From the IMG/VR virus record IMGVR_UViG_2671180710_000027: a stretch of DNA of 11,178 nt; one strand, given 5' to 3'. The notes below the pieces were generated by a model, which did no database searches, was not told where the DNA came from, and saw only the letters and a list, made by a program, of their open reading frames with translations. This DNA is from a virus (taxonomy: Duplodnaviria; Heunggongvirae; Uroviricota; Caudoviricetes). The position numbers and the translations under genes are program-made. Below are positions 1-11,178 of this stretch, piece after piece. Within the stretch, counting starts at the first letter, position 1, and each line of letters begins with the position of its first letter.

Positions 1-603
1 CTATTTCTTCTCTGTAATTTTTACACTGTTTTCCAACTGCTTGATGCTGACCTGCGGGGTCGGCAACTCCTCAGGCATGGTTCCGCCAAGTTCCTGAATG
101 GTTTGCCTCACCTTGCTACCCACGTCAAAGTGTGTGGTATTAGCTTGCTGTGCTGCCTCAACCAATTGTTTGTTATGTTCTTTCAACTCATTTCTCAGAA
201 ACAGACGCTTTTCGTCTTCACGAAGTTGCTTAAATGCTTCATCGTCAGCAAGCTCCTGCCGTCGGGTCTGGATAGCAAAATAAGTCTGCCCTGCCGCAAT
301 GACCGGTTTCGCGGGGTCGCCGTTTTGTACTACCAGGTAACAGGCATAGCGGGAGAGTACGATGTCTTTTAATGCTCTTTTGGCATTTGAGCCAATTTTG
401 ACCATATCGAGGATCTCCTCGAAATGGTCATCAATTGTGTGACCACTGTTCTCACAGGCCTCTTTGGCGCGCGTTAATACAGGTATAAAGTGACGATACA
501 CTGAATAACCCAGTAGTTTCCCAAGTTGTCTTGCTGACCATTGTTCTGCTCCGTTTGCATTAATCAGTTTTATCTCTTCAAAAGGTTGATGATGTTCGTT
601 CAT
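1..603 (-). CDS. dinD: DNA damage-inducible protein D (DinD)
   Basis: ORF-track protein (MNEHHQPFEEIKLINANGAEQW...) recognised from memory as DinD. Complete, with TAG stop at 1-3. Preferred start is the ATG at 601-603 (GGAG about 8 nt upstream) rather than the in-frame ATG at 613-615. A canonical LexA box lies about 45 bp upstream. Confidence 0.8.
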   Translation of the reverse strand: MNEHHQPFEEIKLINANGAEQWSARQLGKLLGYSVYRHFIPVLTRAKEACENSGHTIDDHFEEILDMVKIGSNAKRALKDIVLSRYACYLVVQNGDPAKPVIAAGQTYFAIQTRRQELADDEAFKQLREDEKRLFLRNELKEHNKQLVEAAQQANTTHFDVGSKVRQTIQELGGTMPEELPTPQVSIKQLENSVKITEKK

Positions 604-646
604 TGCCCACTCCATGTGATATCGATTGCAAAGAAAGTAAATCTGT

Positions 647-1016: not shown

Positions 1017-1098
1017 TGCTGGTGGCGGGGGTCGAACCCGCATACATGATCAGCCTGTACAGGCTGGCACCGACTCTACCCGTTGAGCGTACACCAGC
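1017..1098 (-). other. tRNA-like sequence (degenerate; probable attachment-site relic)
   Basis: Minus-strand read gives a perfect 7-bp acceptor stem (GCTGGTG / CACCAGC), a perfect T-arm (GCGGG-TTCGACC-CCCGC) and a D-arm resembling GCTCAGTTGGTAGAGC. The anticodon region is a 5-bp stem with a 6-nt loop inside the palindrome AGCCTGTACAGGCT, spacers are oversized, and no CCA is encoded. Confidence 0.5.
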
Positions 1099-1480: not shown

Positions 1481-1888
1481 TTAGTCTTGCGTGATTTTAT
1501 TGGCGTGCTTCTTTCTAAGCCGCCGAATGATATCGTAAATATGGGTCTCGGATATCGCGTACTCTTTACGTAATGCCTGCAATTTTTCGCCGTTATCCCA
1601 CCTGTAGTAAATCTCGTATTCGCGCAATGCTGCGAAAAGTGATCTGCCTGTTGGAAGGTAAAGACTCCGCCCACCAGCATAGAAGGCGATTGCAGCAACA
1701 ACCCGCTTTGCGATTCTGAAAGCGTCTGCCTCCTCCATGCCATTACGGGTAAGTTCTGCCACTGAATGCGACACGATATCAGCAAGCGAATCACACCATG
1801 CATCACCTGGTTTATCTCCGCCGTCTATGTCATTCATGAATTTAAGCCGCTCGATGTCTTTTGGTACGTGATGGGTTTGCTCGTTCAT
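1481..1888 (-). CDS. Mor-family transcriptional activator
   Basis: 135-aa ORF. The C-terminal half (YLPTGRSLFAALREYEIYYRWDNGEKLQALRKEYAISETHIYDIIRRLRK) parallels phage Mu Mor (YIPRGQALDSLIRDLRIWNDFNGRNVSELTTRYGVTFNTVYKAIRRMRR, recalled). AAGAGG lies 7 nt upstream of the ATG at 1886-1888. Confidence 0.8.
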   Translation of the reverse strand: MNEQTHHVPKDIERLKFMNDIDGGDKPGDAWCDSLADIVSHSVAELTRNGMEEADAFRIAKRVVAAIAFYAGGRSLYLPTGRSLFAALREYEIYYRWDNGEKLQALRKEYAISETHIYDIIRRLRKKHANKITQD

Positions 1889-3946: not shown

Positions 3947-5785
3947 TTATTCATCAATTGCGAATAACAATGCATTCTGGTCGATGGCGTAAACGCGGTG
4001 TTTTTCCCCGTTAACGGAAACGCGTTTTGTGTATCGGCGTTTCCCGTCCGTGTCGCGGTCAACAATCGCGCCAGCATCATCAAGACTGGCCGCTATGCGT
4101 TTCAGGTCGTAGCCGCTGGCCGCCTCACATAGTGCTTCCGGTAAAAACCAGTAAACCCGGTCGCCGTTGCTCCCCGGTCGCCACCATCCGGCGCGGTTGC
4201 TTACTGGTTCGCTGTATGTGTTGCCCCCTTCAAAGCGTGAGGCATGGCGGGCGATAAACCCGGCGACGGCCCGGAGTATTTTCACGTCCTCCGATTGCCC
4301 CCGGCCACGATAGTCCGACCACGCAGCAAACATCGCTTTCACCGCCTCCAGTGCTTCGCCCTGTTTCCACGGCAGAATCCCGGCAGTTATCGCCATTTCA
4401 CCGGCCAGTGCGCACAGTGTGAAACGCGCGGCGGCGCGCGCCTCCTGCCCGGTGCTTACGGGGAATTGTTCGCGCAGTATGGCGTACATATCCGCCAGCG
4501 TCTGGCCGTTGCTGTCGGTGCTGGTGGTGTCACTTTCATTGCGGGAAATCAGCCAGCGCACAAACTCCGGCCCGGCGTGGCCGTAATGGGTGGCCGCATT
4601 ACCGCGCAGCGTTTCGGCAAATTTCCGGCCTGCTCCACGGCGTTCTGTGTCGTTGTCGGGGTTGTGGGGTAGTGCCATTCCGTGGAGGCAGTCAAACGCC
4701 CCGTAAAGCCGCTGTGCCGGAATATCCAGTAACCGCATTTCCTGCCCGGCCTTGATGCGCTGACCACCGCTTTCCATGTGTTTACCCACGGTCATTTCCC
4801 CTGTGGAAATAATCATGGTGCGCCATGTGTTGACCGGGCGGGCCATGCCGGACACCTTGCCACGCTGGCGGCCTGTTCCGTTGCCAAGCTGATAAATCAG
4901 CCCGCCAATATCTCTGGCCGGGGCTTCGCCAATTTCATCCAGTATCAGCGCGGTATCGTTCCGCATGGTCGCCAGCCCTTCAAGCCCGGTGCTGGTGGCG
5001 TTCCAGTTGCGTTTAAAGTTGCGGGGTTCTCCCCATACGCTACAGGCCACCAGCGCCCCCACGCTTTTCCCGCTGGAACTGTCGCCCATGAAATGAAATC
5101 CGCCGCTGTCCACATCAAGCAGCCACAGCAACGGCCCGGCGAGTGATGCACACACTGCCAGCATGGCTACCGGGTTTCCCCGGCATAATGCGGCCACGTT
5201 GTCGCGCCAGCCCTCCGGCGTTCCTGCGGTGGCGTACTCCTGTGAGCCTGCTTCTGTTGACTGAAACACCACATCACCATCACCGATAACCCCGCCCGGC
5301 ATGACAAACAGGGTCGGGGAGTGCCACCCGGTGGCCGTAGCCGCGAGCGCCCGTCGTTTTGGTGCTGACTCCATGATGTATTCGGTCAGTGCCTGCCGTT
5401 GTTTGTAGGGAATGGTAACGCCCATGCGCAGCAGCTCCTGTCGGAGTTCTCCGCCGTCTCCGGCGAGCATTTCCATCGGTGCGGCCCATTCCCGCCACTG
5501 GCCTGACGGCGTGAGAAAACGGAGTAATCGCCCGTAGTTTTCGTCTTTGCTGTCGCTGGTCATGGCGATAACCTCCAGCGGGGAACAGATAAACGTGTCC
5601 GTGTTGGTTGAGTCGCGCACGCCGTGCCAGTAAAGGCCGGGTTTCAGTATCTGGCCGCCGTCCACCTGTACATGCTGCGAATAAGTGGCGTAGCCCGGAC
5701 GTGCCGGGCTGACTTTGGGGTGTTTCTTGCGTGGTGGTTTTCGCTTCCCGGATGTGACCGGGGTTTTAGTGGTTGTCCGGGTCAT
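3947..5785 (-). CDS. Replicative helicase, SF3/P-loop NTPase (P4 alpha C-terminal-like, DUF927-type)
   Basis: 612-aa ORF with Walker A GDSSSGKS and Walker B LILDEIG. Its ATG at 5783-5785 overlaps the primase 3' end by 20 bp. Confidence 0.85.
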   Translation of the reverse strand: MTRTTTKTPVTSGKRKPPRKKHPKVSPARPGYATYSQHVQVDGGQILKPGLYWHGVRDSTNTDTFICSPLEVIAMTSDSKDENYGRLLRFLTPSGQWREWAAPMEMLAGDGGELRQELLRMGVTIPYKQRQALTEYIMESAPKRRALAATATGWHSPTLFVMPGGVIGDGDVVFQSTEAGSQEYATAGTPEGWRDNVAALCRGNPVAMLAVCASLAGPLLWLLDVDSGGFHFMGDSSSGKSVGALVACSVWGEPRNFKRNWNATSTGLEGLATMRNDTALILDEIGEAPARDIGGLIYQLGNGTGRQRGKVSGMARPVNTWRTMIISTGEMTVGKHMESGGQRIKAGQEMRLLDIPAQRLYGAFDCLHGMALPHNPDNDTERRGAGRKFAETLRGNAATHYGHAGPEFVRWLISRNESDTTSTDSNGQTLADMYAILREQFPVSTGQEARAAARFTLCALAGEMAITAGILPWKQGEALEAVKAMFAAWSDYRGRGQSEDVKILRAVAGFIARHASRFEGGNTYSEPVSNRAGWWRPGSNGDRVYWFLPEALCEAASGYDLKRIAASLDDAGAIVDRDTDGKRRYTKRVSVNGEKHRVYAIDQNALLFAIDE

Positions 5786-7405: not shown

Positions 7406-7862
7406 GGCGCGCCCCCTGACGAATACGGGCGACAAAAATCATATGCGCGTGCGGTAGCTGCGCGCGTGCTTCGCGTTCTGTTGCCGCCGTGACGGTAAAG
7501 AGCGAGGTTTGTTTTTCCTGGCACTGCATAAAGCGCCAGACAAAGTAAGGGCGTGCGAATACAGCCATGTGAAAGGCTCCTATGTTTGAGGTAAGGAGTC
7601 TCGCTACTACGCTGCTAAACGGGGTGGCGAGACGTAACGGGGTTAGCAGACTGGCAACATAGAAACCAGCGAGCGCAAAGGCTCCCCCGTCACGCCCCGC
7701 CATAATGCGGGTATGGGTAGGTTTACGGACACAAAAAAACCGCATATCGGAATGTAAGCGGCTGTCCGCTATGTTATTCAGGCTGCTAAACCCGGTCACC
7801 ATGTGGGTGACTCCGGCATCATACAGCCCGAAAGAAGAGGCGATCAACATGTTTTTAAGCAT
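7398..7862 (-). CDS. Ash/Icd-like family protein (long form 154 aa; possible short form 7398-7568)
   Basis: C-terminal 56 aa (MAVFARPYFVWRFMQ...HMIFVARIRQGARHA) is paralogous to the Icd-like protein upstream. The long start at 7860-7862 overlaps the upstream stop (ATGCTTAA). An internal ATG at 7566-7568 has GGAG 8 nt upstream, so the true start is ambiguous. Confidence 0.5.
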   Translation of the reverse strand: MLKNMLIASSFGLYDAGVTHMVTGFSSLNNIADSRLHSDMRFFCVRKPTHTRIMAGRDGGAFALAGFYVASLLTPLRLATPFSSVVARLLTSNIGAFHMAVFARPYFVWRFMQCQEKQTSLFTVTAATEREARAQLPHAHMIFVARIRQGARHA

Positions 7863-8052: not shown

Positions 8053-8481
8053 TCTGGCAGCCTCCTTTTGCAAATTTAAGGAGTCACCGCCTGAGTTTCC
8101 ACGCTCATAAGGGGCGGTGACGCTGGCGGGGGTGGAAATACCGGCGCAAAAGGAAACCGGCCAGCCTTTCGGCTGCCCCACCAGCGCCACCATAGATACA
8201 GTGCGGGCCTTGCCGCTGTTCATGGTTGCGCGATGGCACGACACAAAAAAAGACGCTGGGCGCGTCTGTGTCGCCTTTTGCTCATTAAACGGGTTTCCAC
8301 GCCCGGCTGGTGGATTTACACCAGCCGGGGAAATATAACGCCCACCAGCGATGGCAGGCAAGCAATATTTGCGGTTGCCGCCCATTCTGTGGGGCGTGTG
8401 GTGGTTGTTTTGGGCGTGAGAACGCCCCGGCCCTGTTGCGGGCCTTTCTGGCATTTTCATGATTAAAATTCTCTGACGGGG

Positions 8482-8688
8482 TTAATTGCGCGTGCTGGTC
8501 GTGCCTTTGCGGTCAGCGAGCCACTGGCGGATAGCGGAAACATCAAAGCGGCTTACGCCATCGCCCAGCTTATCCGGGCTGGGGAATTTACCTTTTTTAA
8601 CCCAGTTCCATAGCGTCGATTCGCTAATCTGAAAATGGTTTATCACCTGTGCCGGGCGCATATAGCCGGATTTGGGTAAGGTATCCAT
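8482..8688 (-). CDS. alpA: AlpA-family phage regulatory / excisionase-like HTH protein
   Basis: 68-aa ORF with an HTH (MRPAQVINHFQISESTLWNWVKKGKFPSP) followed by RFDVSAIRQWL, typical of AlpA/Xis-type proteins. AGAGG lies 9 nt upstream. Confidence 0.8.
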   Translation of the reverse strand: MDTLPKSGYMRPAQVINHFQISESTLWNWVKKGKFPSPDKLGDGVSRFDVSAIRQWLADRKGTTSTRN

Positions 8689-8739
8689 GATTAAAGCCTC
8701 TTACAGTGTTTTGGTGCTGAATGGAGGCTATACGCAAGG

Positions 8740-8773
8740 CAAGAAAAAGTAAAGGCGACTAAATTTAGTCGCC
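8740..8773 (-). terminator. Intrinsic terminator downstream of the orphan gene
   Basis: Perfect 20-bp palindrome GGCGACTAAATTTAGTCGCC (8754-8773), followed on the minus strand by TTTACTTTTTCTT. A T-run also follows on the plus strand, so it may act in both directions. Confidence 0.5.
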
Positions 8774-8857
8774 ATTTTTATTGGTGTTTTCGGTTTCTTT
8801 AAAATGCTGGCATATGTATTAAAAAAACGCTTTTATGCTTTCAATTTCATTAAAAAA

Positions 8858-9811
8858 TTATCTTTTTGCTTTTGCGTTTCCGCCCAAAATTTTCCATTCA
8901 TTGGGTAAGCGTCTGGCATCAGATAATATTTTTGCTATTCGTCCCGCGTCAGGTGTTGGGGTGGGATTGCCATCCCAGAACAGATAACCGTGTTTCTCTA
9001 TGGCTTCGGCATGTGATTTAAGTGTCTTGCCAACATCTTTAGGGAAGTGATACGCCACGTACAGGGCAGCCGCGAGAACCTTTTCACGTTCCAGCGCGAA
9101 TCGCTCCACACCGCCGTGTATATCATGCTTTTCCTGATTCCTGTCATCTGTCGGTTGTTCTGTGCGCTGGTAGCCGGGCCTTTGTGCAAGTATTTTTTGC
9201 ATGACCATCATTTCTGAATCGGTAATGCGCAAATTCTTTTTTTCCGGGGCGTTTATCCGGCGTGAGCCGCCACGTGGTGTAAAGGTTGCTGTAACTTTGG
9301 ACAGTGAAGGGGTATCGGTGTACGGTTTTAATGTGAATGTGTCCTGTGCGTGAACGCGCGAGAACTCGGCGTAAGGTACAGTCCATAAGCCATACAGGAG
9401 AACATCCGATACAACCATAAGTTTCCCGTCATGTACCTGCGCGTCACTATGGTTGCTGTCAAAGTAGAACCCGGATTGTGAGTATTGATGGTAAACATTT
9501 CTCCAAATCAATATTGATTCAGGTTCGTTGTCATTGGGGAAAAGCCTGAGTTTCTCCCCTTCTTCCGGTTGTAGTAATTCAGGTGGGAAATAATCGTTTG
9601 TTGCTGGCGCTGAAATACTGGCAATGTTCCACGGCTTGGCCGGATATCCCCACTTGTCGTAATCCGTGTAGCTTTGGCGGTTTATGGAACTTTCCGGGCC
9701 GAAATCAAGTGCGATTTTTATTGTCCCTTTAGCCCATTCAGTCAGTATTTTTTTTTGAGTACACCCCAGTATGCTGGCGGCTGTATCAATAGGGTATGTG
9801 TTTTCATACAT
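8858..9811 (-). CDS. Hypothetical protein (317 aa), AT-rich cargo gene in the integrase-alpA slot
   Basis: Long uninterrupted ORF with ATG at 9809-9811. Composition is markedly more AT-rich than its neighbours. The N-terminus has an HTH-like stretch (IDTAASILGCTQKKILTEWAKG). No catalytic motif recognised. Confidence 0.6.
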   Translation of the reverse strand: MYENTYPIDTAASILGCTQKKILTEWAKGTIKIALDFGPESSINRQSYTDYDKWGYPAKPWNIASISAPATNDYFPPELLQPEEGEKLRLFPNDNEPESILIWRNVYHQYSQSGFYFDSNHSDAQVHDGKLMVVSDVLLYGLWTVPYAEFSRVHAQDTFTLKPYTDTPSLSKVTATFTPRGGSRRINAPEKKNLRITDSEMMVMQKILAQRPGYQRTEQPTDDRNQEKHDIHGGVERFALEREKVLAAALYVAYHFPKDVGKTLKSHAEAIEKHGYLFWDGNPTPTPDAGRIAKILSDARRLPNEWKILGGNAKAKR

Positions 9812-9906
9812 GGTTTACGTTACCTTTGACGCTACCTTAAAAATAAACCGGGGCAGGCGGTAAGGTTTCCCGCTTTTCGCGCCGTCGCGCTATCCCCGGT
9901 ATGTTT

Positions 9907-11178
9907 TTATTTTGCAATCGCTTTTGTGATGGGGGTTACGTTGTATTCATCCCCCTGTTCCAGAGCCACCAGCAGGTCGGCCCATAACTCCAGAGCGTGG
10001 CGGCGTTCATTGAAATACTGATGGCGGTTATAGATACCCTCAACGCCTTTAATTCGGTGGTTCAGGCAGCGTTCCGCCACTACAGGGTCTACCCCAAGCG
10101 CGGCAAGGTGAGTTCTGGCTGTGCGTCGGAAATCGTGAACGGTAAAACCCGGCACACCAGGCATTTCCCGGCGAACCTTAGCCAGCGCAACGGGCAGGGT
10201 GCTTTCCTGTATGTGTGGAATCATGCGCTGTTGCATTTTGCGGGCCGGAAGCACCCAGCGGCTACCGCCTGAAATGCTGTGTAATTCGCGCAACCATGCC
10301 ACCGCTGGTGGCGGTAGTGGGATATCAATGGCATCCCCGTTTTTAGCCCGTTCGGCAGGGAGTCGCCATACAGCACTATCTAAATCAAATTCATCCCACT
10401 GTGCGGCGCACAACTCCATTTTTCGGCAGCAAAGGCAAAGTATCAGTTTCATGGTGAGTTCATTCTCACGGCTGAATCCTTTAGCTGTGCGCATGGCCTG
10501 AAAAAAATGAATGAGTTCATCACGGGTTAGCCATCGGTCGCGGCTTTTTTCAGCCCCACCAGCATCTGATAACTCAAAAGCAGCGGCGGGGTTTGTTTCC
10601 AGTGCGTGGCGTTTGATGGCGTAGTCGAATATCCGTTTAGTCCATCGCAAAACATCATTGGCGACTGTTGGCGCTCCGCGGTCAATAATGCGCTGTAGCA
10701 TTGCGTCAATATGGCGCGGTTTAACGTCTTCGACTTTCAGGCTGCCAATCTGAGGGTTGATATCTTTGTCTATGCGGCGGCGGAGAATATCGGGATGTTT
10801 CCAGCGGGGTAGTATTTGCCGTTCGTAGTATTCGGCTGCCAGTTCTGACACGCGAAGGGCGTTTTTTTCTTCCTCAATCCGTGCCAGTGCCGCCGCTTTT
10901 CGGGCCTGCTTTTCTCCGGCCACGTCATGGCCCAGCGCAACACGGGCGGCCAGTTCTTTAACGGTGGCGCGGGCTTTACTTAGTGACAGGTCGGAATATG
11001 AGCCGATGTGCATAGCACGTTGTTTCCCGGCCATCCGGTAACGATAGCGCCAGAATGGGGCGTTATATTTTTCAGGGAAGCACAAATACAGGCCGTTACC
11101 ATCGGCGCGGGCATCAAAGCGTTCCCCGGCCTTTATCCACGCCTTTATCTGAATATCCGTTAACTTCGCCTTTGTCAT
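9907..11178 (-). CDS. int: Tyrosine site-specific integrase, P4 family
   Basis: 423-aa ORF whose N-terminus (MTKAKLTDIQIKAWIKAGERF...GNGLYLCF) resembles the P4-type arm-binding domain. The C-terminus carries the catalytic motifs HDFRRT and LNH...GIYNRHQY. The start codon is at the window edge. Confidence 0.9.
   Translation of the reverse strand: MTKAKLTDIQIKAWIKAGERFDARADGNGLYLCFPEKYNAPFWRYRYRMAGKQRAMHIGSYSDLSLSKARATVKELAARVALGHDVAGEKQARKAAALARIEEEKNALRVSELAAEYYERQILPRWKHPDILRRRIDKDINPQIGSLKVEDVKPRHIDAMLQRIIDRGAPTVANDVLRWTKRIFDYAIKRHALETNPAAAFELSDAGGAEKSRDRWLTRDELIHFFQAMRTAKGFSRENELTMKLILCLCCRKMELCAAQWDEFDLDSAVWRLPAERAKNGDAIDIPLPPPAVAWLRELHSISGGSRWVLPARKMQQRMIPHIQESTLPVALAKVRREMPGVPGFTVHDFRRTARTHLAALGVDPVVAERCLNHRIKGVEGIYNRHQYFNERRHALELWADLLVALEQGDEYNVTPITKAIAK

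Follow-up and report, generated by a model that had tools for sequence, protein, structure and literature searches.

The open reading frame between the integrase gene and alpA of an enterobacterial satellite, termed ORF317 here, belongs to a protein superfamily found only in the integration module of int-alpA-primase (PICI-type) satellites. ORF317 is neither an orphan, nor a relative of YfjH, nor a recognisable defence gene. In the window (the whole 11,178-nt stretch of viral DNA that was analysed), it is preceded by int-alpA RNA, an orphan motif of the Rfam database, and this unexpected link extends to the genes that occupy the same slot in other islands. The protein is best read, tentatively and at somewhat less than an even chance, as a DNA-binding accessory or sensor protein of the satellite life cycle that is analogous to the iolg/icg genes of the Vibrio PICMI satellites.

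The satellite and the ORF317 family

ORF317 starts with ATG and shares its orientation with the integrase gene and alpA that flank it (Table 1). The same CDS is annotated in E. coli 2012EL-2448 as a hypothetical protein (WP_042964799.1, PGAP), and E. albertii NBRC 107761 is a further carrier strain. The host island spans ~10 kb between yicC and dinD, with the int, alpA, Toprim_3 and DUF927 genes all on the minus strand. It has the gene content of a PICI (co-oriented int, alpA and primase genes, small size, and no phage structural or lysis genes) and conforms to the four-zone layout of satellites (PMC10111431). Integrases homologous to that of the window carry the Arm-DNA-bind_3, Phage_int_M and Phage_integrase domains.

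Table 1. Features of the integration module, in window coordinates.
Feature	Position	Strand	Description
Tyrosine integrase gene	9907..11178	minus	423 aa; ORF, PGAP; first gene of the integration module
int-alpA RNA (Rfam RF02996)	9835..9900	minus	66 nt; cmscan 64.2 bits (gathering score 35.8)
Hairpin P4 (GCGU/ACGU)	9817..9832	minus	8-nt loop CAAAGGUA holds the ORF317 Shine-Dalgarno sequence
ORF317	8858..9811	minus	317 aa
ORF317 residues 1-58	9638..9811	minus	Winged helix-turn-helix head, MerR/Xis/AlpA type
ORF317 residues 59-213	9173..9637	minus	Beta-rich middle domain; most variable part; no detectable fold relative
ORF317 residues 214-233	9113..9172	minus	Disordered linker (pLDDT <50 at 214-234); alignment gapped and poorly conserved
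ORF317 residues 234-317 and stop	8858..9112	minus	Three-helix tail, strongly conserved
Intrinsic-terminator-like element	8741..8773	minus	Palindrome GGCGACTAAATTTAGTCGCC (8754-8773), then T-run (8741-8753)
alpA leader hairpin	8695..8729	minus	AGCCUC/GAGGCU pairing over the alpA Shine-Dalgarno sequence
alpA	8482..8688	minus	68 aa; AlpA/HTH_17 regulator-excisionase (Pfam HTH_17 6.5e-8, Phage_AlpA 9.5e-7)

The initial annotation described the gene as an orphan that had been acquired separately, and neither description is supported. The family, although unannotated, comprises 47 homologue clusters at 41-92% identity and ~100 remote representatives, with hosts that range from E. coli through Aeromonas to Chromobacterium. 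The order int, ORF317, alpA and, further on, the Toprim/DUF927 genes is found in every homologue context examined, down to ~20% identity, including those of Salmonella, Tenebrionibacter, Aeromonas, Chromobacterium and metagenomes; these islands are satellites of the PICI type, most of them integrated beside yicC. A family-alignment scan of 100,044 species representatives returns three hits (E. albertii, Tenebrionibacter intestinalis and Aeromonas rivuli), while none is found in 50,697 phage records or 72,556 plasmid records. From E. coli to Aeromonas, the close family has kept its position and diverged together with int and alpA, and synonymous sites are saturated in all three genes.

ORF317 is more AT-rich than its neighbours, as had been noted, though the difference is only moderate: a GC content of 46.9% in ORF317 compares to 53.5% in int, 52.2% in alpA and ~60% in the Toprim/DUF927 genes, while the spacer between ORF317 and alpA has only 33%. 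By its substitution pattern, ORF317 is a genuine gene under purifying selection, yet a fast-evolving one. Its dN is 0.28-0.45, compared to 0.064-0.071 for int (dS is saturated in both), such that the protein changes 4-7 times faster than the integrase and is the fastest-evolving product of the integration module. The lower GC and an annotation that goes no further than hypothetical would suit a decaying or spurious frame in an AT-rich spacer, where the RNA alone is functional; this explanation is, however, scarcely credible. ORF317 has a dN/dS of 0.14-0.22 against close alleles, with dN near zero in the head and tail, its homologues are full length and share 39 invariant columns, the AF2 model has a confident pLDDT (82.5), and both the start codon and the hairpin with the ribosome-binding site are kept across loci.

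A resemblance to YfjH of the CP4-57 prophage of E. coli K-12 (b2623), suggested in the initial annotation, stands for size and slot but not for homology. The two proteins are alike in length (318 and 317 aa), both are uncharacterised, and yfjH likewise lies between intA and alpA; its strand is, however, opposite to that of intA and alpA, while ORF317 is co-oriented with both its neighbours. BLASTP of the pair gives an E-value of 2.7, phmmer of YfjH finds no match among 144 members and remote relatives of the ORF317 family, and the family HMMs score only 4.1 bits (A1) and -1.3 bits (A2). YfjH lacks a Pfam family and CP4-57 lacks int-alpA RNA. Common descent of the two proteins is, thus, very improbable. 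In a five-sequence comparison, YfjH weakly resembles another family of slot proteins (motif GRKGG...KAE, E 0.007), a similarity that is too weak to use.

Domain organization of ORF317

ORF317 is predicted to consist of a winged-helix head, a beta-rich middle domain, a disordered linker and a helical tail. The head has the winged helix-turn-helix fold of the MerR superfamily, based on a structural match that covers only ~55-60 residues at a modest Z. ORF317 differs from the AlpA, Xis and MerR proteins that share this fold in being five times the length of an excisionase and in that the Pfam models fall short of significance. No Pfam match is found at E <= 0.1, including the HTH_17, Phage_AlpA and MerR models, and HTH_17 is matched by only one of 88 remote relatives (E 0.005). 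The full-length protein is also without a match in PHROGs and NCBIfam; sequence searches of the PDB with ORF317 and both family profiles find none, and Foldseek against the PDB and BFVD gives no match at E <= 0.001.

The tail is the part of the protein that is common to the ~100 remote relatives. It includes most of the invariant columns of the family alignment, is read as HGG.ERFALEREK.LAAALYVA.HFP...WKILGG, and has a dN/dS of 0.03-0.12. In the AF2 model, its three helices span residues 234-255, 264-278 and 289-299.

The int-alpA RNA leader

The 95-nt gap between int and ORF317 is filled by int-alpA RNA, and the start codon of ORF317 is located ~25 nt downstream of the RNA. This element, directly upstream of the gene, had been overlooked in the initial annotation. 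The RNA consists of a closing stem (P1) that encloses two hairpins (P2 and P3), and the minimum-energy fold of the window sequence matches the consensus. Related loci score 49.8-69.1 bits with RF02996. Covariation is extensive, with changes on both sides of all eight P1 pairs and of three of the four P2 pairs; 95.7% of the alignment cells are paired, compared to 32-41% when the partners are slid, and the observed values are reached by none of 500 shuffles.

Past the 3' end of RF02996, and outside of the Rfam model, is a further hairpin (P4) with the Shine-Dalgarno sequence of ORF317 in its loop. Across 20 loci, 94.6% of the P4 cells are paired and three of the four pairs have changed on both sides, while two loci have register-shifted equivalents (GUUAC/GUAAC in L039 and AAUCC/GGAUU in L050). 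RF02996 is listed in Rfam as a functionally uncharacterised sRNA; in the loci analysed here, by contrast, the RNA acts like a 5' leader, with an extra covarying hairpin that includes the Shine-Dalgarno sequence of the downstream ORF. Among 44 loci found in a scan seeded on the RNA core alone, a same-strand ORF follows at a fixed distance in all 43 that are readable.

The RNA lies immediately 5' of ORF317 or its homologues in the window and seven other loci. In one locus (L015), an IrmA gene sits between int and the RNA; thus, the RNA travels with ORF317 and not with int. Sister islands that lack ORF317 also lack the RNA. Overall, int-alpA RNA is found in 203 of 5,426 complete E. coli genomes. 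The RNA is not specific to ORF317, since in three phage-like contigs it is 5' of an HNH endonuclease gene or a probable radical-SAM gene. The HNH endonuclease and an ORF with the sequence MYQWGKG were considered as slot occupants and rejected, as they reside on phage-like contigs rather than satellites. A general reading of P1 as the terminator of int is likewise rejected: a U-run follows P1 in some RNA variants only, and many variants are without it.

The ORF317 terminator and the alpA leader

Downstream of ORF317 is an element with the features of an intrinsic terminator, in which the coding strand reads TTTACTTTTTCTT directly after a perfect 20-nt palindrome. The hairpin reported in the initial annotation is, thus, confirmed, with the range of 8740-8773 given there covering the hairpin and the T-run together. 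The hairpin has a predicted fold of -13.2 kcal/mol (z = -4.3 vs shuffles), is unique in the window, and is kept with symmetric changes (GGCAAC/GTTGCC and GGAAAC/GTTTCC) among the Salmonella, Tenebrionibacter and Aeromonas loci. An operator of the MerR type was considered for the same palindrome and rejected, as it is not flanked by a -35/-10 pair with 19-20-bp spacing, the palindrome is not repeated in the window, and the symmetric changes suit a hairpin equally well. No convincing DNA target for ORF317 is found in the window or in the spacer, the one strong palindrome being most plausibly the terminator.

Between the terminator and alpA, a second hairpin pairs over the alpA Shine-Dalgarno sequence (-13.7 kcal/mol, z = -1.6). 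By eye, the pairing is kept in other islands with different sequences (GUCUC/GAGAC, CAGUCUC/GAGACUG and CCCGUAAC/GUUACGGG).

Exchange of the slot gene

The contents of the slot were defined in the converse direction from the scan seeded on the RNA core, in which 41 of the 44 loci have satellite contexts (int upstream and/or alpA downstream of the RNA, plus one ORF) and 40 of these have a readable ORF. The comparison of the int-alpA slot across islands, proposed in the initial annotation, reveals four ORF families and a slot that always holds exactly one gene, of ~215-335 aa; alleles of ORF317 and members of the three other families displace each other between the conserved leader and alpA. The ORF317 superfamily accounts for 20 of the 40 ORFs. 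Family c1 accounts for another 10 and probably shares the winged helix of ORF317 (hhalign probability 58%, E 9.6e-5), with common ancestry supported for the head only. Thus, 30 of the 40 ORFs share, or probably share, the MerR/Xis/AlpA-like winged helix. The other two families, c2 and DUF6387, are unrelated to ORF317, one being of ~220 aa with a C-terminal GGRP...WL motif; hhalign of c2 and DUF6387 against the ORF317 profiles gives no support for relatedness.

The exchange has sharp boundaries. In L035 and L037, the flanks of the slot are 98.9% and 99.3% identical, while the ORFs between them are unalignable, and one alpA allele (>=95% identity) is paired with two different slot families. The unit that is swapped extends from the start codon to ~40 nt before the alpA ATG, where similarity between islands with different slot genes returns, and alpA forms the right-hand border of the slot. 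The upstream control region of alpA, therefore, moves with the slot gene. The view of ORF317 as a single-gene unit with its own terminator at a site of exchange is upheld by these comparisons.

ORF317 is not invariant: of 15 closely related E. coli islands, three lack it. In these three diverged islands, int and alpA are 95-96% identical to their counterparts and 496 bp of unrelated non-coding DNA replaces the RNA and ORF317, which indicates that the gene is not indispensable to the island backbone.

Exchange of this kind is also expected of a cargo hotspot. In this alternative, raised in the initial annotation, the position downstream of int-alpA RNA would serve to express single-gene immunity or interference factors that can replace one another. 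ORF317 would be an unrecognised anti-phage or helper-interference factor of this sort, perhaps silenced by the structured leader until a phage infects. The cassette-like exchange between near-identical flanks, the four families in the slot, two of which occur beside one alpA allele, the three islands that lack the gene, its lower GC and its rank as the fastest-evolving gene of the module are all compatible with cargo. Int-proximal defence hotspots are, furthermore, known in satellites, the P4 psu-int locus being an example (PMC9122126); PICMI has a defence gene elsewhere in the element, and a small gene in the int-alpA slot of EcCIMP1 is classed as accessory. The P4 site resembles the slot in being next to int and in having unrelated genes swapped between conserved flanks, but it holds >300 arrangements that are often multi-gene and often include known defence systems (PMC9122126), whereas in the present slot a conserved RNA leader is followed by one gene, drawn from a few families that PADLOC does not recognise.

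PADLOC-DB v2 gives zero families for ORF317, the other slot occupants, YfjH and the remote relatives, with 11-14-bit coiled-coil noise on P0048 as the sole hits among the last three groups; the anti-phage role suggested for the gene is, thus, without positive evidence. Several further features speak against cargo, including the uniform size and number of the slot genes, the DNA-binding head that is shared or probably shared by three quarters of them, the lack of a catalytic motif or fold relative in ORF317, and the lasting association of its close family with one int lineage from E. coli to Aeromonas. In PICMI, moreover, excision depends on the corresponding gene. An anti-phage or interference function is, on balance, unlikely, if still a serious competitor. 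Even if ORF317 proves to be a defence factor, a conserved RNA leader shared by interchangeable ORFs, and a fold without known relatives, would be useful findings.

Predicted role of ORF317

In the preferred reading, a role in the satellite's own life cycle, the head of ORF317 would bind DNA and the protein would not act as a catalytic defence enzyme. ORF317 would most likely be made together with Int and act at the att sites or at the alpA control region. The variable middle domain may read a helper-specific signal, to which excision or the induction of alpA would be coupled. Such a protein would be a functional analogue of PICMI iolg/icg and, more loosely, of SaPI Stl.

The int-alpA interval of the Vibrio PICMI satellites is occupied by genes from 13 functionally uncharacterised families, and the one in PICMI115 is required for excision (PMC10803314). 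PICMI iolg is the only gene of this position to be studied, and its mechanism in excision is unknown. Similarly to iolg/icg, ORF317 is the sole gene between the int and alpA of an int-alpA-primase satellite and has their orientation, has no known function, is one of several unrelated families (13 in PICMI and four here) and is absent from a minority of elements (PMC10803314). A further likeness is the pairing with an alpA that is, presumably also here, phage-induced. By contrast, iolg overlaps the int stop codon by 1-13 nt, while ORF317 is set apart from int by a gap that holds a structured RNA; ORF317 is, thus, at most of the 'contiguous' (icg) variant. The excision requirement is known from PICMI115 alone, the hosts and helper phages of which differ from those of the ORF317 islands.

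The comparison to Stl (Rpr), the master repressor of the SaPI/PICI satellites of Gram-positive bacteria, is looser. Both proteins are satellite-specific, are encoded next to int, have an N-terminal DNA-binding domain (predicted in ORF317), and are highly variable in the remainder, which in Stl reads different helper proteins. Stl is, however, divergent from the operon that it represses, whereas ORF317 is co-directional with int and alpA. The head of Stl is of the lambda-CI/XRE type and not of the MerR/Xis type. The spacer between ORF317 and alpA has no operator-like repeats besides the terminator palindrome.

In Gram-negative PICIs, how the helper switches on alpA and whether a repressor exists are stated to be unknown (PMC6092414). 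A more elaborate model, which is speculative and rather doubtful as a whole, treats int-alpA RNA and its downstream gene as a single regulatory device. The RNA would gate, in cis, the synthesis of a hypervariable winged-helix protein at the level of transcription or translation. The exchangeable middle domain of this protein would recognise a particular helper phage; by binding DNA beside alpA or, together with Int, at the att sites, the protein would determine which helper can induce or excise the satellite. If true, Gram-negative PICIs would have in this device their long-sought equivalent of Stl, and the int-alpA motif would gain a function.

The window provides a tractable enterobacterial example of the int-alpA slot, with a defined superfamily, a domain map, and natural controls in the form of allele swaps and gene-less islands. 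Strain CFIAFB20180511 was considered as a mosaic allele and rejected, being a deletion remnant that retains int and the first 112 codons of ORF317.

Host Island and Gene Order

The window is a ~10-kb island between yicC and dinD of Shiga-toxin-type E. coli and is 100% identical to 2012EL-2448 by sequence comparison. On the minus strand, int, ORF317 and alpA come first, then two Ash/Icd-like genes that contain C4 and isrK RNAs. Beyond these lie two small ORFs, the Toprim and DUF927 genes and, finally, an SSB fragment, PerC and Mor. This order matches the four-zone layout (integration, Bro/immunity, replication and late) of Gram-negative PICI-type satellites (PMC10111431), and the host element is of this known kind. 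The C4/isrK RNAs and Ash/Icd-like ORFs are a P1-type c4-icd-ant immunity module in duplicate; related islands carry an AntA antirepressor at the c4-icd-ant position. The tRNA-like element is called tRNA-Tyr by PGAP, and ARAGORN reports zero tRNAs over the window, this element included. The PADLOC matches of dinD are no evidence of a defence system here, as they reflect a common DinD/BRO-type domain.

Coordinates of features in the window and in compared genomic loci (L-numbers)
Feature	Source	Coordinates	Strand	Remarks
int	window	9907-11178	minus	first gene in order
int-alpA RNA (RF02996)	window	9835-9900	minus	fills 95-nt int-ORF317 gap; 64.2 bits (gathering score 35.8)
Small hairpin P4	window	9817-9832	minus	outside Rfam model; loop holds ORF317 Shine-Dalgarno sequence
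ORF317 (317 aa)	window	8858-9811	minus	between int and alpA
Sigma-70-like match	window	8923-8952	minus	CTGACG, 18-nt spacer, TATTAT; 9/12 positions
Perfect palindrome	window	8754-8773		GGCGACTAAATTTAGTCGCC
Possible alpA leader hairpin	window	8695-8729	minus	AGCCUC pairs with GAGGCU
alpA	window	8482-8688	minus	after ORF317
isrK RNA	window	8246-8325	minus	63 bits; within Ash/Icd-like ORFs 3' of alpA
C4 antisense RNA	window	8110-8197	minus	82 bits; within Ash/Icd-like ORF
C4 antisense RNA	window	7620-7707	minus	74 bits; within Ash/Icd-like ORF
Mor-family gene	window	1481-1888	minus	
tRNA-like element	window	1017-1098	minus	far end of island; Rfam tRNA 35 bits (gathering score 29)
dinD chromosomal fragment	window	1-615	minus	PADLOC PDC-S13 (E 5e-78), N-terminal part of 'Specificity_I' (E 2e-65)
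496-bp slot DNA	L011 (E. coli C311)	9288-9783		
496-bp slot DNA	L024 (FDAARGOS_943)	8290-8785		
YfjH	L002 (E. coli K-12)	4645-5601		
IrmA gene	L015	1739-2188		
Mu-type genes	L006/L007	14085-16528		
int-alpA RNA locus in phage-like contig	L039	6460-7053		

The ORF317 Family

ORF317 is a genuine, selected gene that is satellite-specific and keeps a fixed position. The protein has no match in Pfam, PHROG, NCBIfam, PADLOC or PDB sequences; however, the term orphan, used in the initial annotation, does not apply. Homologues form 47 clusters (41-92% identity; Escherichia, Salmonella, Raoultella, Serratia, Tenebrionibacter and Aeromonas), every one named 'hypothetical', and a full profile search over 1.84 billion representatives yields ~100 further, remote relatives of similar length, including proteins of Salmonella, Enterobacter, Aeromonas and Chromobacterium. 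The family is rare, occurring in 12 of 5,426 complete E. coli genomes and 3 of 100,044 species-representative genomes, with zero carriers in the phage and plasmid records searched.

A likeness to YfjH had also been suggested. K-12 YfjH (318 aa) lies between intA and alpA on the strand opposite to both and has no similarity to ORF317 by BLASTP, phmmer or family HMMs; on these two grounds homology is rejected, and very little weight stays with it. YfjH could be linked to one kind of slot occupant only, the c2 family of slot ORFs (L032, L042 and L057), with which it shares a short motif (R.AG+KGG....KAE); at E 0.007-0.03 in a five-sequence comparison, this is too weak for homology.

An AlphaFold2 model built from a 43-sequence alignment (mean pLDDT 82.5) predicts four parts: a winged helix-turn-helix head (1 to ~58), a beta-rich middle domain ending near residue 213, a disordered linker of residues 214-233 and a tail of three helices (residues 234-300). 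The head is of the MerR/Xis/AlpA type. Conservation is bipartite, with nearly all invariant residues in the head and tail, and the middle domain is variable, with two very different versions in the alignment. Selection is purifying over the whole length (overall dN/dS of 0.14-0.22; by region, about 0 for the head, 0.15-0.25 for the middle and 0.03-0.12 for the tail), and a spurious ORF is most improbable. The superfamily and its domain plan appear new in the literature searched.

Apparent Inheritance with the Integrase

Every informative context has the order int, ORF317 homologue, alpA and, farther on, Toprim/DUF927, mostly beside yicC and down to ~20% identity. In islands of Salmonella, Tenebrionibacter and Aeromonas, identity to the window is 78-89% for Int, 75-83% for AlpA and 43-62% for the ORF317 product. 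The dN is 0.28-0.45 for ORF317, against 0.064-0.071 (int) and 0.12-0.14 (alpA); all three genes are saturated at synonymous sites. Thus, ORF317 looks co-inherited with its neighbours in this lineage, yet its protein evolves 4-7 times faster than Int.

Among 15 E. coli genomes whose int is close to that of the window (at least 93% identity), full-length ORF317 is present in 11, a deletion remnant in one, and int and alpA without ORF317 in three, where 496 bp of non-coding DNA, unrelated and with repeats, fill the slot. In the sister islands L011 and L024 (int/alpA 95-96% identical), this AT-rich DNA replaces both RNA and ORF, has repeats such as (G)CRTATAAAGGTTTTTAAA, and resembles an alternative alpA control region. 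At this site, E. coli more commonly carries an island whose int has ~76% DNA identity to that of the window; the 307-aa product of its slot gene fits the superfamily profile across the head and middle (93.5 bits) and differs in the tail.

A Structured Leader and a Terminator

The int-alpA RNA, missed in the initial annotation, lies directly 5' of an ORF317 homologue in seven other loci and is absent from the islands lacking ORF317 and from CP4-57; the leader occurs in 203 of 5,426 complete E. coli genomes. In the metagenomic island L015, an IrmA (interleukin-receptor-mimic) gene separates int from the RNA and ORF317 unit; thus, the RNA goes with ORF317 rather than int, and true cargo can enter on the int side of the RNA.

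Across 20 distinct leaders, the closing stem (P1) has compensatory changes in 8 of 8 pairs (CCGGGG/CCCCGG, UUGAGCC/GGCUCAA, CCGGAAC/GUUCCGG and AACAGAC/GUCUGUU), the inner hairpin P2 changes on both sides in 3 of 4 pairs, and P4 is 94.6% paired with 3 of 4 pairs changing on both sides. The U-run that follows P1 in the window is missing from many variants; thus, P1 is not generally a terminator. Since an ORF begins at a fixed distance 3' of the RNA core in all 43 readable loci (of 44 found), the motif behaves as a 5' leader, not a free-standing sRNA. Both the tight coupling of ORF317 to this RNA, listed by Rfam as an sRNA, and the extension into a ribosome-binding-site hairpin appear new in the literature searched.

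ORF317 is expressed from this conserved structured leader and ended by a terminator, in which the palindrome and T-run fold at -13.2 kcal/mol (z = -4.3). At 46.9%, the GC content of ORF317 is below that of int (53.5%), alpA (52.2%) and the replication genes (about 60%); the AT-richness and perfect hairpin noted initially are, therefore, correct at the sequence level. The one sigma-70-like match in 8400-10000 (1.8 expected, thus within chance) falls within the ORF, at its 3' end, and is directed to the terminator and alpA. The 5' leader of alpA may form a hairpin with the alpA Shine-Dalgarno region, a pairing kept with other sequences in other loci (read by eye only), which suggests post-transcriptional control of alpA.

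Slot Occupants and Proposed Role

Metagenome contigs scanned for exact matches to the RNA core returned 44 loci. Satellite contexts account for 41: int lies upstream, alpA downstream, or both (several contigs end too early to include the two flanks), and Toprim/DUF927 lie beyond where the contig reaches. The ORF begins about 40 nt downstream of the core in 40 of 40 readable satellite loci. The slot ORFs belong to the ORF317 superfamily (20 loci), c1 (about 295 aa, 10 loci), with a head that aligns to the superfamily head (hhalign probability 58%, E 9.6e-5), c2 (about 220 aa, 7 loci), with a C-terminal GGRP...WL motif, and DUF6387 (3 loci); PADLOC has zero matches to these four families. The int-alpA RNA also occurs outside satellites, as the other 3 of the 44 loci are phage-like contigs. 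One of them, L039, has the RNA in a cluster of phage head genes, immediately before a gene for an HNH/NUMOD4 homing endonuclease; in the other two, L050 and L065, taken in the orientation that puts the RNA on the plus strand, the RNA precedes a probable radical-SAM gene, an ORF whose start is radical-SAM-like (CxxxC).

Exchange boundaries are sharp. The flanks of loci L035 and L037 are 98.9% and 99.3% identical, but their ORFs are unalignable at the DNA level, the likeness ending at the start codon and restarting about 40 nt before the alpA ATG; one alpA allele (at least 95% identity) is paired with two slot families. Such cassette-like exchange, the islands lacking ORF317, and the c2 and DUF6387 occupants unrelated to it would fit a site where unrecognised anti-phage or interference genes are carried as cargo, the view of the initial annotation and the main rival. 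However, known defence families are wholly absent from the slot, a single-gene rule applies, a DNA-binding head is probably common to three quarters of the occupants, and co-inheritance with int is stable; a cargo site is considered somewhat less likely than the reading below.

The preferred, still tentative, reading is that ORF317 encodes a life-cycle regulator or accessory protein, which would bind DNA and help to control induction or excision of the satellite itself; its variable middle domain might read a helper-specific signal. The remaining probability falls to something else. PICMI satellites have an int-alpA gene in 13 families of unknown function, which is required for excision in PICMI115 and missing from a few subfamilies (PMC10803314); this likewise variable gene is a precedent for the slot gene here. 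How helpers induce alpA in Gram-negative PICIs is stated to be unknown (PMC6092414).

The Aeromonas veronii island (L006/L007) encodes a Mu-like gpT major head protein and carries two Mor-family genes and a Gp41_Mu gene; a Mor-family gene is retained in the window. The Mu-type genes of the Aeromonas relatives hint that helpers of this island family could be Mu-like or related phages.
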